DNA of 64,000 bases from Escherichia coli (GTDB lineage Bacteria > Pseudomonadota > Gammaproteobacteria > Enterobacterales > Enterobacteriaceae), in assembly GCF_003018235.1 (NCBI RefSeq), contig NZ_CP027437.1. One strand, written 5' to 3'. Shown one piece after another: positions 1-22,947 of this stretch. The notes beneath the pieces are model-generated. The model was given only the letters and a program-made list of their open reading frames with translations. It had not been told where the DNA came from and did no database searches. The translations under genes and the position numbers were made by a program. Numbering within the stretch: the first letter of the stretch is position 1; each line of letters starts with the position of its first letter.

Positions 1-1733
1 GGTTATATTAAATATTCCGTCACTGGTCATTTGCAGGATAGTGTTCCCACAACTAAGAATTATGGAATCTCCCGCAGCAAGGCGTAAATTCTGTACGGCC
101 TGAATCGTTTTATTTTGTCCGGCAAGGGAGGTATCATCCATCTGAACTGTAAGAGAACGTTCCTCACCAATTATCGCTGTTTCTGTTTTATCAATGACTT
201 TAAGGCGATTATTGCCCACCCAGTGGCTTTCATTATTATTTACTTCAATCCGCTGATCTTTTTCGGCATGTAGCCAGACCTCTTCACCGCCAGGTTTATC
301 CTCAAAACGTAGTGCGTTGGCATTGGTTGGGCCGCCGCCGATAGTGTGACTGTAAAATCCGCTTTGCGTCGCTGCGCCCGGTAGTCCCCACGGTGGCATG
401 GTGTCCTGGTTGTAGGTACGCCCAACAATTATCGGTAAATCCGGATCACCGTTTTTGAAATCCACCAGTACTTCCTGACCAATGCGCGGGATCTGAATGC
501 CACCGAATCCTTTACCCGCCCACGGATAACTGACACGGACCCAGCAGGAACTATTTTCGTCATTCTTACCGTAACGATCCCAGCCAAACTGAACTTTCAC
601 CCGGCCATATTTATCTGTCCAGATTTCCTGCCCTGCCGGGCCGGTGACGATGGCGCTCTGCGGGCCTTTAGTGTGGGGTTTGCTCAGGGTTCGTTGTGGG
701 CGGTAAACTTCGCTGGTGGGATGCAGTTCAAAGCTGGTTGAGTAAGAGAAATGCTGCTCCTGGCCGCTGTGTTGCGCATTGTCCTGTATAAATAGCGTGG
801 TCTGTACCAGCAGATATTCCCGGTTCACTTCGGCTGTCGGATAGTTTTCCAGGATGAAGGTAAAACCTGTCATCAGGGTACGAATATTGCCGCTGCCCTG
901 TACCCGACTACCTGGGCTACGCTGTTCTTCCATGCGAATGCGTGTCAGCATTTCACCTTCACTCTTTGTGAAGTAATCTCCCGGCCATTCGTAGTGCTCA
1001 TATTCAGCAAGGCCGGTTTCACGCGGATTAGCCACGGTGCTCTTCAGCAGTGAACGCGGCTTCATAAAGTCGAAATCATTCAGCACCCACTGTCCACTGC
1101 GCAGACTTTCATTTGCTGTGATGGTATGGATAAACTCCTTGTCCAGTTTCAGCCCTTTCTGGTAATAACACACCAGCGGCGAATCTGCGCATGCCTTGTG
1201 GACATTAATGGCATCAGCCAGCACTAACGTGTGACTGTTCTCGCTGTGCTCAAACCACCAGTAGATACCCCACTCCTGCATCAGGCGCTGAACAAAATCG
1301 AAATCTGTTTCACCGTACTGCACCTGCCAGGCGCGAGTCGGATAATTTTCCACCAGTCGTTTTTCCACTGGCCAGGGGTACTCATCCAGTACCTCATCCA
1401 GGATCTCCACCACGTTTTTATTCTGAAACGCTTTGTAGTCACTAGTGTGGGTCAGTATTTTTAACCACGGTTCGAGCCGCAGTTCATACACCACCGAACG
1501 TCCTTGATGACCAGCCACGCGTGCCGCCGTCACCAGCCCGCTGATATAACGTTTTCCGCCGCCATCCAATTCGATATTGACGCACAGATCTTTGCCCACC
1601 ATCGGTTTGAGCTGCAGGTTGGCTGCGGGGGAAACATAGCCCAGGTTCAGGATGTCAGGAGTTTTTAATTTAATAGAATAAGTAAATAGTTCCCCTACTG
1701 TTTCTGTACCCCCTAAGCTTGCAAACAGTAACA
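1..1733 (-). pseudogene. vgrG: vgrG (T6SS spike protein), portion downstream of the IS3 insertion; continues beyond the window start
   Basis: Minus-strand frame is open from 1733 to position 1. Translation carries gp27-like motif [32 protein letters not shown] and the conserved [26 protein letters not shown] block. The apparent ATG at 1732-1734 is created by the IS3 terminus. Confidence 0.8.
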
Positions 1734-1763
1734 TGATCCTACCCACGTAATGTGGACACGGCC

Positions 1764-2618
1764 CTAAGCGAGATTATGGTTTTCAAATTGTTCCGGGCTG
1801 AGACCGCCACAGGCACTGTGACGACGCCAGCGATTGTAATCACTCTCGATATAATTAAACACCGTTGCCCGCATTATTTCCCGGCTGCTAAAGCGTTCCC
1901 CGTGGATACATTCCACCTTCAGCGAATGAAAGAAGCTTTCCACACAGGCATTGTCATAACAGTAGCCTTTCGCACTCATACTGCCACGCAGGTTGTGTCG
2001 CTTCAGCATTGCCTGATAATCCCCTGAACAGTATTGACCACCACGGTCCGTATGAACAATGACGTTTTCCGGGCGTCTTCTCCGCCACAACGCCATTTGC
2101 AGTGCATCACAGGCCAGTTGTGCTGTCATTCGCGGTGACATCGACCAGCCAATGACGGCGCGTGACCACAGGTCGATGACTACTGCGAGATACAACCAGC
2201 CCTCATCGGTACGCAAGTACGTGATGTCACCCGCCCACTTCTGGTTCGGGCCACTGGCGCTGAAGTCCTGCTCCAGCAGATTCTCCAATACGGGCAGGCC
2301 ATGTGCACGGTAGCTGACCGGGCTGAACTTCCGGCTGGCTTTCGCCCGCAGCCCCTGACGACGCAGGCTGGCGGCAATGGTTTTAATATTGAACTCCGGC
2401 AGTTCGTCAGCAAGGCGGGGAGCACCGTATCGCTGCTTTGCCTCAAAGAATGCCTTATGGACAGCGGCATCGCAGGTGAGCCGAAACTGTTGGCGCAGGC
2501 TCATCTGGTGACGACGCCTGAGCCAGACATACCAGCCGCTGCGGGCAACCCGAAGTACACGACACATCGCTTTGATGCTGAACTCTGCCCGATGATTTTC
2601 GATGAAGACATACTTCAT
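1764..2618 (-). CDS. insF: IS3 transposase OrfB (integrase/DDE catalytic part)
   Basis: 284-aa [25 protein letters not shown]... typical IS3 OrfB; overlaps orfA as expected for frameshift-fused OrfAB. Confidence 0.9.
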
Positions 2619-2914
2619 TTCAGGCGCTTCGCGAAGTATGTCGCGGCCTTTTGGAGGATGGCCAGTTCCTCAGCCTGCTCCGCCAGTTGTCGTTTAAGGC
2701 GGACATTTTCAGCGGCCAGTTCGCTTTCGCGCTCTGACGAACTCATTTGTTGCTGCTGTTTACTGCGCCAGGCATAAAGCTGAGATTCATACAGGCTGAG
2801 TTCACGGGCTGCGGCGGCCACACCGATGCGTTCAGCGAGTTTCAGGGCTTCGTTACGAAATTCAGGCGTATGTTGTTTACGGGGCTTCTTGCTGATTGAT
2901 ACTGGTTTTGTCAT
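2615..2914 (-). CDS. insE: IS3 transposase OrfA (HTH DNA-binding part)
   Basis: 99-aa [34 protein letters not shown]... matches IS3 OrfA. Confidence 0.9.
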
Positions 2915-2977
2915 GAGTCACCTCTGGTTGAGAGTTTACTCACTTAGTCCTGTGTCCACTATTGGTGGGTAAGATCA

Positions 2978-3074
2978 ACATTCCATCAGGAACTGCGCTG
3001 CCGCTCAAAGTCACGTTATGTGTACCCGATCCAGTTAGTGCGCCGGATGGATAATCTGTAGCTGCAAAACTCAT
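2978..3074 (-). pseudogene. vgrG: vgrG 5' fragment (codons 1-32) separated from the rest by IS3
   Basis: ATG at 3072-3074 (reverse strand) with AGGA Shine-Dalgarno; MSFAATDYPSGALTGSGTHNVTLSGSAVPDGM. Removing IS3 and one ACA copy joins it in frame to [16 protein letters not shown]... at 1731. Confidence 0.7.
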
Positions 3075-3295
3075 AATTAATCCTTTTAACTAGAAATGGA
3101 TAAGTGCTAATAAGAAATCTTACAGAGAATAAAATATGCAATATATTCGTAGCTGGCATAAAACATCTCAATACTTATGCGTGCTACTGAAGATACTATC
3201 AACCATATATGCCTTGAAGAATGCACCGTCATGTTAACCTGGTGGAAACATTCACCTAAAGTACATTAATAAAACTAATAAAATTATTTAATTTG

Positions 3296-3652
3296 TTATT
3301 TGATATGATTATCATCAAGTCTTAAAATACGTTCTCCGGTTCTAATTATGTTAAAACCATAGTATTCTTTTTTACTTTCGGAAGAGAGCATATATTTCCC
3401 GATATACATAACATCTGAAGATAGCTCACTTATATCAATACATACGGGTTCGAACTGACCTGTCACTCTTTTCAACTTTATTGCATTGCCATATTTACCT
3501 TCATATAAAACATAATTTGAAATAATATTCCCATCGTCTGGTTTTGAACAAATCTGTCCGTCTTGCAAATATACACTACCGGGTAACAATGGGCGAACAT
3601 AATCACCAACAGTGCATCCCGACAAAAAGAAAAACAAAAAGAATCTCTTCAT
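3296..3652 (-). CDS. small lipoprotein of unknown function (candidate immunity/inhibitor partner)
   Basis: 118-aa ORF with signal peptide and lipobox MKRFFLFFFLSGC; start codon overlaps stop of upstream gene (ATGA, 3649-3652); AT-rich codon usage. Confidence 0.6.
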   Translation of the reverse strand: MKRFFLFFFLSGCTVGDYVRPLLPGSVYLQDGQICSKPDDGNIISNYVLYEGKYGNAIKLKRVTGQFEPVCIDISELSSDVMYIGKYMLSSESKKEYYGFNIIRTGERILRLDDNHIK

Positions 3653-4179
3653 ATGACACCCGCAGGAAATAAATTAAGCACCTTTTTGTATTTTTCCGAT
3701 AGAGTGTTCACTGATTCAGTTGTATCACCTACATAGTTAACATTTGCCAAATCAGCCACCAGTCCATAGTTAATTAATAGCCAATAATCAGCAACTATAG
3801 ATGCTTGTTGTTCCATGGAATAAGAAGAAATTGACTGTAAATTAAGATCGTAATGATAATTTGCCGCCCAAGAAAATAAACCACGCAACTTAACTGCATA
3901 CCCTTTCTGATATTGCCAAACATGCATCATTTCATGAATAAACAAGTGAGAAGCACCTGCTACTGTTTCACGATCACCAGGCATTGCTTGCGATGAATAA
4001 TCTGAACTATAAACAGCATCAGGATAATACATTTCCCCGTTTGGGGTCATCGCTGTTCTTTCCCCTTGACCAGGCAAATATTTTTCATTGTGGATCCATA
4101 CCTTGCTATAATCAATTGTATTCTCAAAAATCGATCTGGCCAATGTTAATTCACCAGATGTCATTCTCCTTAATGACAT
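3649..4179 (-). CDS. zincin-like metallopeptidase-domain protein with HExxHxxQ motif (DUF4157-like)
   Basis: HEMMHVWQ encoded at 3922-3936. N-terminal LARSIFENTIDYSKVWIH...AMTPNG pattern resembles DUF4157. ATG at 4177-4179 is preceded by AGGGGA; six-frame track extends to a GTG at 4218. Confidence 0.55.
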   Translation of the reverse strand: MSLRRMTSGELTLARSIFENTIDYSKVWIHNEKYLPGQGERTAMTPNGEMYYPDAVYSSDYSSQAMPGDRETVAGASHLFIHEMMHVWQYQKGYAVKLRGLFSWAANYHYDLNLQSISSYSMEQQASIVADYWLLINYGLVADLANVNYVGDTTESVNTLSEKYKKVLNLFPAGVI

Positions 4180-5116
4180 ATCCTTTCCCCTGGAAATAAT
4201 ATCTTTCAGATAAAACACAAACGCCCTTTGATGTTCAATATTCCCACTTTATACAGTATTGATGACATCATATTCATAGAAAATAAAATCAAAGCAAGTT
4301 ATCAACGTTTCCCGTTATGATTTCTTAACATTAATTCTCAGCATTTTTATTAATCTATCTTCAATATCAATAACCGATGCAAATGATTACGCAGCTAACA
4401 TAATTCTCATCAATTGATTAATGTCTGTAAACGCTACCGCCCCACCCTGATATCTTAATCTGCACATAGCAATCTTAACGTTATGCCCCATACATTAGTA
4501 ATGTAAATTAAGAATTCGGAATATATCAAATTCACTTCATAAATTAATATCGGGAATGATATACACATTAATTATAATGAAGTAATGTTTTAAGAGTTGT
4601 AATGACCATGGAACAGGATTAATTCCAGAAGCTCCTGTTGGGCAATAGCGCGTTTATCATCCTACATGCCTCTTACATTTTTTAGCCTTTTCTTTAACGT
4701 CAGCAATTGGCTCATTTAATCAGCAATTGTATTGGTATTTGGCGTATTACCCCTGAAACCCGTCATGTGCTAGCACCTCACTATTCAATGAGCCAACCAC
4801 GCCAGTGTCCACTGCAACCACTGGCGTTCAGAGCGACGAACGAGTGGCGCAAGAGTAAGACTGCCGTCGGGCATCATCAAACCAATAGTGGTTGTTTCCG
4901 TCAAAATTTCATCAGGTTGCTATTTTGTTGCCGGCCGCCTTTATCCCCACATATTTATAGCGGGATTATTTTGCATCGTTACACGATAAAAGGTAGGATT
5001 CTGCGCCGACAGTTATACCCATAAAGAATAATGGTGAATCTTGTCATCGCCAGGATGAATAAACATTGTTCATGGCAACTTATATGACTTTTTCATTAAA
5101 GCAATCAGGGAGAGCA

Positions 5117-6616
5117 ATGAGTAAACACGACACCGACACTTCAGATCAACACGCCGCGAAACGCCGCTGGCTTAATGCCCACGAAGAGGGGTATCACAAA
5201 GCGATGGGCAATCGCCAGGTACAGATGATCGCCATTGGCGGCGCGATTGGTACGGGTTTGTTTTTAGGCGCGGGAGCCCGACTGCAAATGGCGGGGCCAG
5301 CACTGGCACTGGTCTATTTGATCTGCGGCCTGTTTTCATTTTTTATTCTGCGTGCATTGGGTGAGCTGGTGTTACACCGCCCTTCCAGTGGCAGTTTTGT
5401 CTCTTATGCCCGTGAGTTTTTAGGAGAGAAAGCCGCTTACGTTGCAGGCTGGATGTACTTCATCAACTGGGCGATGACGGGGATTGTCGATATTACCGCC
5501 GTCGCTCTGTATATGCATTACTGGGGTGCGTTTGGCGGCGTGCCGCAGTGGGTCTTTGCGCTCGCTGCGCTGACCATCGTTGGCACCATGAATATGATCG
5601 GTGTGAAATGGTTTGCCGAGATGGAGTTCTGGTTTGCGCTTATTAAAGTGCTCGCCATTGTTACCTTTTTGGTCGTGGGTACAGTGTTCCTCGGTAGTGG
5701 TCAGCCGCTGGATGGCAACACCACTGGTTTTCATTTAATTACCGATAACGGCGGCTTCTTCCCCCACGGTTTGCTGCCTGCGCTGGTGTTGATTCAGGGC
5801 GTAGTGTTTGCTTTTGCCTCCATTGAAATGGTGGGTACAGCTGCCGGAGAATGTAAAGATCCGCAGACCATGGTGCCTAAAGCCATTAACAGTGTGATTT
5901 GGCGTATTGGCCTGTTTTACGTCGGCTCCGTGGTGTTGCTGGTTATGTTATTGCCGTGGAGCGCATATCAGGCGGGGCAAAGTCCGTTCGTGACGTTTTT
6001 CTCTAAACTGGGTGTGCCATATATCGGCAGCATTATGAACATTGTGGTGCTGACCGCTGCCCTCTCCAGCCTGAACTCAGGTCTGTACTGCACCGGACGT
6101 ATTCTGCGCTCAATGGCGATGGGCGGTTCCGCACCGAGTTTTATGGCGAAAATGAGTCGTCAGCATGTGCCGTATGCCGGGATTCTGGCGACACTGGTTG
6201 TGTATGTCGTCGGCGTATTCCTCAACTATCTGGTGCCGTCGCGCGTATTTGAGATTGTGTTGAACTTCGCGTCGCTGGGAATCATCGCCTCATGGGCGTT
6301 TATCATCGTGTGCCAGATGCGCCTGCGTAAAGCGATTAAAGAAGGCAAAGCCGCGGATGTCAGTTTTAAACTGCCTGGCGCGCCCTTCACTTCCTGGCTG
6401 ACATTACTGTTTTTGCTGAGCGTCCTGGTGCTGATGGCGTTCGATTACCCGAACGGGACTTATACCATCGCGGCGCTGCCGATTATCGGTATTCTGCTGG
6501 TTATAGGCTGGTTTGGTGTGCGCAAACGCGTTGCTGAAATTCACAGCACTGCGCCAGTCGTCGAGGAAGATGAAGAACAACAGGAAATTGTGTTTAAGCC
6601 TGAAACGGCGAGTTAA
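5117..6616 (+). CDS. ansP: L-asparagine permease (APC family amino acid transporter)
   Basis: 499 aa from ATG 5117 (MSKHDTDTSDQ...); multi-TM amino acid permease; track ORF starts 17 codons upstream. Confidence 0.9.
   Translation: MSKHDTDTSDQHAAKRRWLNAHEEGYHKAMGNRQVQMIAIGGAIGTGLFLGAGARLQMAGPALALVYLICGLFSFFILRALGELVLHRPSSGSFVSYAREFLGEKAAYVAGWMYFINWAMTGIVDITAVALYMHYWGAFGGVPQWVFALAALTIVGTMNMIGVKWFAEMEFWFALIKVLAIVTFLVVGTVFLGSGQPLDGNTTGFHLITDNGGFFPHGLLPALVLIQGVVFAFASIEMVGTAAGECKDPQTMVPKAINSVIWRIGLFYVGSVVLLVMLLPWSAYQAGQSPFVTFFSKLGVPYIGSIMNIVVLTAALSSLNSGLYCTGRILRSMAMGGSAPSFMAKMSRQHVPYAGILATLVVYVVGVFLNYLVPSRVFEIVLNFASLGIIASWAFIIVCQMRLRKAIKEGKAADVSFKLPGAPFTSWLTLLFLLSVLVLMAFDYPNGTYTIAALPIIGILLVIGWFGVRKRVAEIHSTAPVVEEDEEQQEIVFKPETAS

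Positions 6617-22509: not shown

Positions 22510-22947
<438 letters not shown>

Follow-up and report, generated by a model that had tools for sequence, protein, structure and literature searches.

A predicted metallopeptidase effector-immunity pair of the Tpe/Tpi family at the RhsE site of Escherichia coli

The C-terminal domain of Pseudomonas aeruginosa VgrG2b is a thermolysin-like gluzincin, in which the HExxH motif comprises H935, E936 and H939, with E983 as third zinc ligand (PMC6899460). The domain is toxic in the periplasm only, and its toxicity needs H935, E936 and H939 (Wood et al. 2019, PMC6899460). Its effects are blebbing at mid-cell and lysis, and no peptidoglycan hydrolase activity was detectable (PMC6899460). 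PA0261 binds the domain and neutralises it (PMC6899460). VgrG2b has been grouped with Tpe1/Tpi1 of Acinetobacter baylyi, the pair that gave the Tpe/Tpi family its name (PMC6899460). The same 2019 report noted the domain in many Enterobacteriaceae as a putative cargo effector with a predicted lipoprotein immunity protein (PMC6899460). The Salmonella arizonae pair SARI_02727/SARI_02726 was validated in 2026 by competition and heterologous expression, and AlphaFold 3 gave it an interface predicted template modelling score (ipTM) of 0.87 (PMC12992299). Secretion dependent on a type VI secretion system (T6SS), and periplasmic toxicity abolished by mutation of the catalytic Glu, have been reported for VgrG2b, ACIAD0053 and SARI_02727 (PMC6899460, PMC12992299). 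In this study, we analysed a stretch of 64,000 nucleotides of E. coli contig NZ_CP027437.1 (assembly GCF_003018235.1), the whole of which is called the window here. It carries two overlapping minus-strand genes, at 3649..4179 and 3296..3652, which we call the effector gene and the immunity gene after their predicted roles. Sequence, structure models and analogy with characterised homologues suggest, with a probability of about 0.85, that they form a T6SS antibacterial effector-immunity pair of the Tpe/Tpi family (VgrG2b C-terminal domain/PA0261). This type of pair is already known; the E. coli member has not been characterised previously, and a literature search found no paper specific to it.

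Both genes lie in an AT-rich islet with ansP on one side and the start of vgrG on the other. The G+C content was 31-39% over about 3000-4650 and 50-55% in ansP and in the flank formed by an insertion sequence (IS) and vgrG. A preliminary description of this DNA had placed two minus-strand genes in such an islet, and both open reading frames (ORFs) were read there with a G+C content of 31-39%. The longest ORF for the effector gene, 4218..3649 on the minus strand, starts with GTG and encodes 189 aa. An ATG at 4179 gives a protein of 176 aa and is preceded by GGAAAGGA, which is Shine-Dalgarno-like. NCBI also places the start at the ATG at 4179 in identical loci, and this ATG is the likely start. 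The 176-aa protein with HEMMHVWQ and AMTPNG that had been described was present at 4179..3649; it contains LARSIFENTIDYSKVWIH, AMTPNG and HEMMHVWQ, the last of these including H82, E83 and H86. The protein has no signal peptide, and its N-terminus is not hydrophobic.

We compared the effector protein with proteins of solved structure. A phmmer search of PDB sequences returned a single strong match, 6H56, which is the effector domain of P. aeruginosa VgrG2b (chain A, E 1.9e-20, 76.6 bits, residues 4-138). H82, E83, H86 and E123 of the effector aligned with H935, E936, H939 and E983 of VgrG2b, and all four were invariant in an alignment of 29 diverse effector homologues. In the AlphaFold2 (AF2) model of residues 1-170, the predicted local distance difference test score (pLDDT) was at least 83 in 13 of 17 ten-residue blocks and lower, at 63-78, in blocks 61-70, 91-110 and 141-160. 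When this model was searched against the PDB with Foldseek, the sole significant matches were chains A and B of 6H56 (E about 6e-9); for 6H56_B the E value was 5.5e-9, the probability 1.00 and the TM score 0.64 normalised to the target. The next matches had E values above 5e-3 and came from the immunity part of the fused model described below. The effector is thus modelled with the same thermolysin-like fold as 6H56. As judged from sequence and model, the gene is a stand-alone version of the gluzincin domain found fused to the VgrG2b spike in P. aeruginosa, with the predicted zinc site HExxH...E intact.

A profile built from the 29 effector homologues retrieved both VgrG-fused and PAAR-fused members. 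At E<=1e-3 the family counted 3,147 representatives of clusters made at 50% identity, and at least 525 of its loci were found in species-representative genomes. Its members are either free, with a length of about 170-200 aa, or fused to PAAR or to VgrG. Previous work noted that the family is "frequently annotated as DUF4157" (Wood et al., PMC6899460). The DUF4157 family (PF13699, now "eCIS core domain") resembles the effector in its short zincin core containing HExxH, and such a resemblance had been proposed in the preliminary description. This proposal stood in part. Weak similarity was found in relatives, 17 of 29 of which matched PF13699 at E<=0.1 and none at E<=1e-3 (best 4.9e-3); the E value was 0.63 for a VgrG-fused member and 0.014 for a PAAR-fused member. 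The effector itself had no PF13699 match at E<=10, and membership in DUF4157/PF13699 was rejected at Pfam thresholds. The effector had no NCBIfam match and nothing meaningful in PADLOC or PHROGs, so that a defence-system or phage origin is not supported.

The immunity gene (3296..3652, minus strand) encodes a 118-aa lipoprotein with the lipobox LSGC, Cys13 and Thr at +2. The protein begins MKRFFLFFFLSGC, a short lipoprotein signal peptide. Because of the Thr at +2, the lipoprotein is predicted to be anchored in the outer membrane, facing the periplasm. Residues 5-96 matched positions 7-108 of 119 in the NCBIfam model NF045617, "putative T6SS immunity periplasmic lipoprotein" (E 1.1e-7), below the curated cut-off of that model. 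To examine the gene in relatives, the ORF following the effector gene was taken at 80 homologous loci, which gave 78 ORFs. Among these, phmmer from the immunity protein alone found seven matches (E 1e-6 to 5e-4), and jackhmmer converged on 56 of the 78, including the S. arizonae one. DUF7480 matched 22 of 37 aligned relatives at E<=1e-3. In the 37 aligned mature sequences, C35 and C71 (precursor numbering) were the sole invariant residues, which fits the DsbA dependence reported for PA0261. The predicted structure was a beta-sandwich of Ig/FN3 type (pLDDT 84.6), for which no informative solved relative was found. A word-indexed protein search with the immunity protein returned only E. coli alleles, at 83-97% identity. 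A comparison of the immunity alignment with the Salmonella immunity protein by hhalign was discarded as circular, the target being inside the alignment. By its sequence, the gene is a translationally coupled lipoprotein gene of the predicted cognate immunity family PA0261/Tpi, NF045617 and DUF7480.

The immunity ATG overlaps the effector TGA as ATGA at 3649-3652. This overlap, together with the 118-aa LSGC lipoprotein, had been described previously and was confirmed. In stand-alone Enterobacterales loci the next ORF was nearly always a lipoprotein of 113-156 aa, with an overlap of 4 or 7 nt. Between full-length E. coli alleles the effector was 88-99% identical and the immunity protein much more divergent. 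The ratio of non-synonymous to synonymous change (dN/dS), for allele pairs where it was calculable, lay at 0.05-0.35 in the effector gene and at 0.29-0.64 in the immunity gene, and the dN of the immunity gene was about 5-fold that of the effector gene. Faster non-synonymous change in the immunity gene is usual for effector-immunity pairs. Both ORFs are real genes and not chance frames, because they are conserved in 230 of 5,426 complete E. coli genomes, show these dN/dS values and, for the effector, have more than 3,000 homologous cluster representatives.

The preliminary description had proposed a zincin-like toxin with an envelope immunity partner at a T6SS spike locus. The homology to 6H56, the conserved ligands, the predicted fold, the link to an immunity family and the published experiments on homologues all support this proposal. 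It had recognised neither protein as a characterised E. coli gene; the pair can nevertheless be recognised as one of the named Tpe/Tpi family.

The pair was compared with the described systems of this family. The effector is 35% identical to the VgrG2b domain over the structural alignment, with the same HExxH plus distal Glu site and the same predicted fold. In both systems a small gene for an exported immunity protein lies directly downstream, and its conserved cysteines suggest a disulfide. VgrG2b is fused to its VgrG spike via DUF2345 and a TTR domain, whereas the E. coli effector is free, its gene lying upstream of one for a plain VgrG. PA0261, which has a type I signal peptide, is soluble in the periplasm; the E. 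coli immunity protein is a lipoprotein. Compared with VgrG2b, the E. coli effector clade has about 8-12 extra residues (approximately 63-74) just before the catalytic helix. SARI_02727 is likewise a stand-alone cargo protein (189 aa) and is 44% identical to the E. coli effector. It is followed by the overlapping gene of SARI_02726, an outer-membrane lipoprotein immunity protein, in the same effector-immunity-vgrG order. However, the S. arizonae pair lies within a complete T6SS cluster, whereas the E. coli pair lies in an orphan vgrG-Rhs island. SARI_02726 has 154 aa and passes both DUF7480 and NF045617, while the E. coli immunity protein has 118 aa and passes neither. As published, A. baylyi Tpe1/Tpi1 (ACIAD0053/0054; Ringel et al. 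2017, via PMC6899460) also resembles the E. coli pair as a stand-alone T6SS metallopeptidase with its immunity gene just downstream; Tpi1 differs in that a transmembrane helix anchors it in the inner membrane, and it is no lipoprotein.

The pair heads a vgrG/DUF1795-chaperone/PAAR-Rhs module at the RhsE hot spot beside ansP. Loci lacking the IS carry, in this order, effector, immunity, vgrG (664 aa), DcrB/DUF1795 chaperone (EagR-type), PAAR-Rhs, Rhs immunity, ydcC, yddH and nhoA. E. coli K-12 MG1655 has yncG, yncH and an rhsE pseudogene at the same ansP-side position (L094, 4248-7939), and the site is therefore the variable RhsE hot spot. An upstream location relative to vgrG had been called atypical for cargo. 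We found instead that the order effector-immunity-vgrG on one strand is shared with S. arizonae SPI-20, Citrobacter farmeri and about 10 other stand-alone Enterobacterales loci. This order is normal for the Tpe/Tpi family. The closest relative outside E. coli was that of C. farmeri, in which the effector is 68% and the immunity protein 49% identical, and where exactly the E. coli-type module closes a tssM-tagF cluster.

A comparison of the locus across complete E. coli genomes, as the preliminary description had suggested, found the pair in 230 of 5,426 (about 4%), always chromosomal and always at the RhsE site. Carriers include animal and human gut isolates, the enteropathogenic E. coli (EPEC) strain E2348/69 and the mouse commensal MP1. 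Among 12 E. coli loci inspected, vgrG was intact in 7 and disrupted in 5. An IS breaks vgrG in the window; KW21 has an internal stop in the gene and FHI_NMBU_03 a frameshift; and E2348/69 (L090, 6839-9883) and RM14723 (L100, 239-3283) have lost its 3' part together with the 5' part of the Rhs gene. The immunity gene was frameshifted in E2348/69 and RM14723. The effector motif of E2348/69 reads HEMMHIGQ (V87I, W88G), and the W88 position is nearly invariant. At the aspV site of E2348/69, a usual location of T6SS-1, no T6SS genes were found. The pair is intact in KW21, FHI_NMBU_03 and ETEC1738; the Rhs gene of ETEC1738 has an internal stop. MP1, M18 and 64.1 are among the strains that have the locus intact.

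In the window, vgrG is broken by ISEc16, an IS3-family element of 1,244 bp with TG...CA ends (1734..2977, minus strand). The break had gone unmentioned in the preliminary description. The vgrG start codon lies at 3074 on the minus strand, 221 bp downstream of the immunity gene. The severed 5' fragment (2978..3074, minus strand) comprises codons 1-32 and one further base, the first of codon 33, and the remainder (1..1733, minus strand) runs past the left edge of the window. Over residues 32-609 this remainder shares 99.8% identity with the VgrG of strain ETEC1738, which is intact and 664 aa long. The transposase frames of ISEc16, orfA (2914..2615) and orfB (2618..1764), are on the minus strand. 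A 3-bp direct repeat, ACA, flanks the element at 1731-1733 and 2978-2980 as a target-site duplication; the insertion is a simple transposition. The junction of ISEc16 with vgrG was found in none of the 5,426 complete E. coli genomes, and the insertion is therefore probably recent and strain-specific. Delivery by the split vgrG spike has probably been lost in the source strain. ISEc16 is also likely to be polar on the downstream Rhs module, with loss of Rhs toxin expression. The effector and immunity genes are intact in the source strain despite the broken vgrG.

The homologues suggest how the pair may act. The effector would be made in the cytoplasm, harmless there and with no export signal, and would be mounted non-covalently on the T6SS spear. 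The carrier could be the adjacent VgrG or the Hcp tube; Hcp is a speculative candidate because the effector has a size of 20 kDa and no dedicated adaptor gene lies beside it, the DUF1795 gene belonging with prePAAR-Rhs. The effector would then be fired into the periplasm of neighbouring Gram-negative cells, where zinc-dependent peptidase activity would lead to mid-cell blebbing and lysis. The target is not peptidoglycan in vitro, and cleavage of a lipoprotein tether has been suggested. In sister cells the outer-membrane lipoprotein, stabilised by a C35-C71 disulfide, would bind the toxin and block it. In the source strain the pair would at least confer immunity against kin carrying the weapon, and it may serve immunity alone or ride another carrier.

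Several observations weigh against an assignment as a T6SS effector-immunity pair. The direct evidence for the E. coli proteins consists of sequence and models, while toxicity and immunity were demonstrated for homologues. Neither protein had a Pfam match even at E<=10, DUF7480 (PF24295) included for the immunity protein, and the NF045617 score of the latter was 32 bits against a curated cut-off of 43. The pair was modelled by AF2 as a single chain, effector-(GGGGS)6-immunity, with 26 paired alignment rows. This fused model had a predicted template modelling score (pTM) of 0.63 and a mean pLDDT of 75.6, so binding was not confidently predicted, and the pLDDT of the immunity part was lower than when it was modelled alone. 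There are no T6SS core genes within the window, and vgrG is broken in the source strain, as it is in 4 of the 11 other E. coli loci examined. In S. arizonae-type loci the pair lies inside T6SS clusters. Many relatives are orphans, their pairs having no T6SS gene within 7-8 kb, and other relatives sit in a degraded cluster. Homologues also occur in Sphingomonadaceae, where T6SS is rare (Wood et al., PMC6899460).

Some of these observations could also mean that the locus is a disarmed remnant, in which the effector is undelivered or unexpressed and the locus is kept for the protection given by the lipoprotein. This would be a state of the same family and not another identity. The split of vgrG after codon 32, the 5 of 12 disrupted vgrG genes, the further decay in E2348/69 and RM14723 (immunity frameshifts; in E2348/69 also W88G and the aspV site empty of T6SS genes) and the lack of T6SS core genes in the window would all agree with it. 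However, both genes are intact, and strains whose vgrG is unbroken have an identical effector. Purifying selection on the effector is strong (dN/dS 0.05-0.35), which is not expected if immunity alone mattered. A 20-kDa effector could ride on Hcp or on a different VgrG encoded elsewhere, and the IS insertion is unique among the genomes searched and probably recent. We regard a disarmed state as possible but less likely than not.

A more tentative proposal is that the E. coli/Citrobacter clade is a functionally distinct branch of Tpe, marked by the extra loop before the catalytic helix, a short immunity protein below the DUF7480 and NF045617 thresholds, the lack of an adaptor and, perhaps, loading on Hcp or an unlinked spike instead of the neighbouring VgrG. 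We consider this unlikely. If true, it would explain an intact pair under purifying selection where the neighbouring vgrG is broken, and the target could differ from that of VgrG2b.

VgrG2b was called a trans-kingdom effector (PMC4453011), and an action mainly on eukaryotic host cells, as first proposed for it on the basis of gamma-tubulin interaction and bacterial uptake, was considered for the E. coli effector. Carriers of the pair include animal and human gut isolates and EPEC. However, a coupled, co-evolving periplasmic lipoprotein immunity protein makes sense for antibacterial activity only, and the stand-alone Salmonella homologue kills E. coli. The searches made with the effector revealed no eukaryote-like domain. 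A main role in host cells is improbable.

The neighbours of some relatives are housekeeping genes, and no T6SS gene lies close by, as in Rosenbergiella (acpS/tadA) and Pantoea; this could point to a housekeeping or self-directed envelope protease-inhibitor pair unrelated to interbacterial conflict. This is very improbable for the E. coli pair, which is accessory (4% of genomes), AT-rich and located in the variable RhsE hot spot, and whose homologues are experimentally toxins. A peptidase with no signal peptide and an exported partner would meet only after injection, which also counts against such a role. It is likewise very improbable that the effector is cargo of an extracellular contractile injection system (eCIS) or a phage-derived particle with a coincidental vgrG linkage: DUF4157/eCIS_core domains are typical there and 17 of 29 relatives show weak PF13699 similarity at E<=0.1, but the effector itself has no such match and no PHROG or PADLOC match, no eCIS or phage genes flank it, and the domain is covalently fused to T6SS VgrG and PAAR in relatives.

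With the Tpe/Tpi assignment, a predicted function is given to two genes carried by about 4% of complete E. coli genomes and annotated as "hypothetical protein", often under the wrong label "type IV secretion protein Rhs". The classical RhsE/vgrG hot spot beside ansP would gain a peptidase toxin acting in the periplasm, and the E. coli pair would be a further native member usable in the search for the substrate of the family. The assignment does not change the current understanding of T6SS biology.

The remaining features of the locus are described here. On the far side of the effector gene, ansP (5066..6616, plus strand) is divergent from it, with an 886-bp non-coding spacer between them (4180..5065, about 33% G+C over most of its length). 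The spacer presumably holds the promoter of the effector-immunity(-vgrG) transcript. A promoter scan found 13 promoter-like sites in it, which was not above shuffled controls (10.7 +/- 3.3). A terminator scan found no minus-strand terminator in the spacer and no terminator-like site separating the immunity gene from vgrG. An Rfam scan of 2900-5100 gave no family and just a chance snoRNA match (E 0.11). In the GC-richer part of the spacer, a 39-codon ORF with a TTG start lies on the minus strand at 4785-4904; it is annotated by NCBI in identical loci as the hypothetical protein WP_001317812.1, and there was no sign that it belongs to the effector module. Over 1-28,204 the window is colinear with ETEC1738 except for ISEc16, found in the window only, and a prophage found in ETEC1738 only. 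This prophage of about 36 kb lies in hicB (22615-22629 of the window versus L083, 6575-42414).

The coding sequence of the signal-peptide h-region in the immunity gene (3623-3643, minus strand) is a T5(G/C) hexamer repeat (TTC TTTTTG TTTTTC TTTTTG). Strains M18 and d1-58 have one extra copy of the hexamer, which adds "LF" to the signal peptide. Other immunity alleles have a T8 run in this tract, and in E2348/69 a change to T7 causes the immunity frameshift. The tract is slippage-prone.

Further observations were made on relatives outside E. coli. In C. farmeri (L084, 7000-7980), a truncated vgrG of 326 aa with Phage_GPD only ends 20 nt before the effector gene, and a second, complete vgrG follows the immunity gene. 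The truncated copy hints that the pair was once the tail of an upstream vgrG module. Prompted by this arrangement, a degraded vgrG was sought in the E. coli spacer 4180-5065, and none was found there. The orphan pair of Rosenbergiella collisarenosi lies between acpS and tadA (L002, 6986-7860), and that of Pantoea beside an integrase fragment (L088, 8001-8869). Three copies of the pair per genome were found in Rosenbergiella, Serratia plymuthica, Cedecea neteri and Kosakonia cowanii. In Enterobacter sp. Ag1, the cognate immunity gene is followed by a second NF045617 lipoprotein gene (L006, 7988-8341; 118 aa, 52 bits, above the cut-off), which looks like a tandem or orphan immunity copy.

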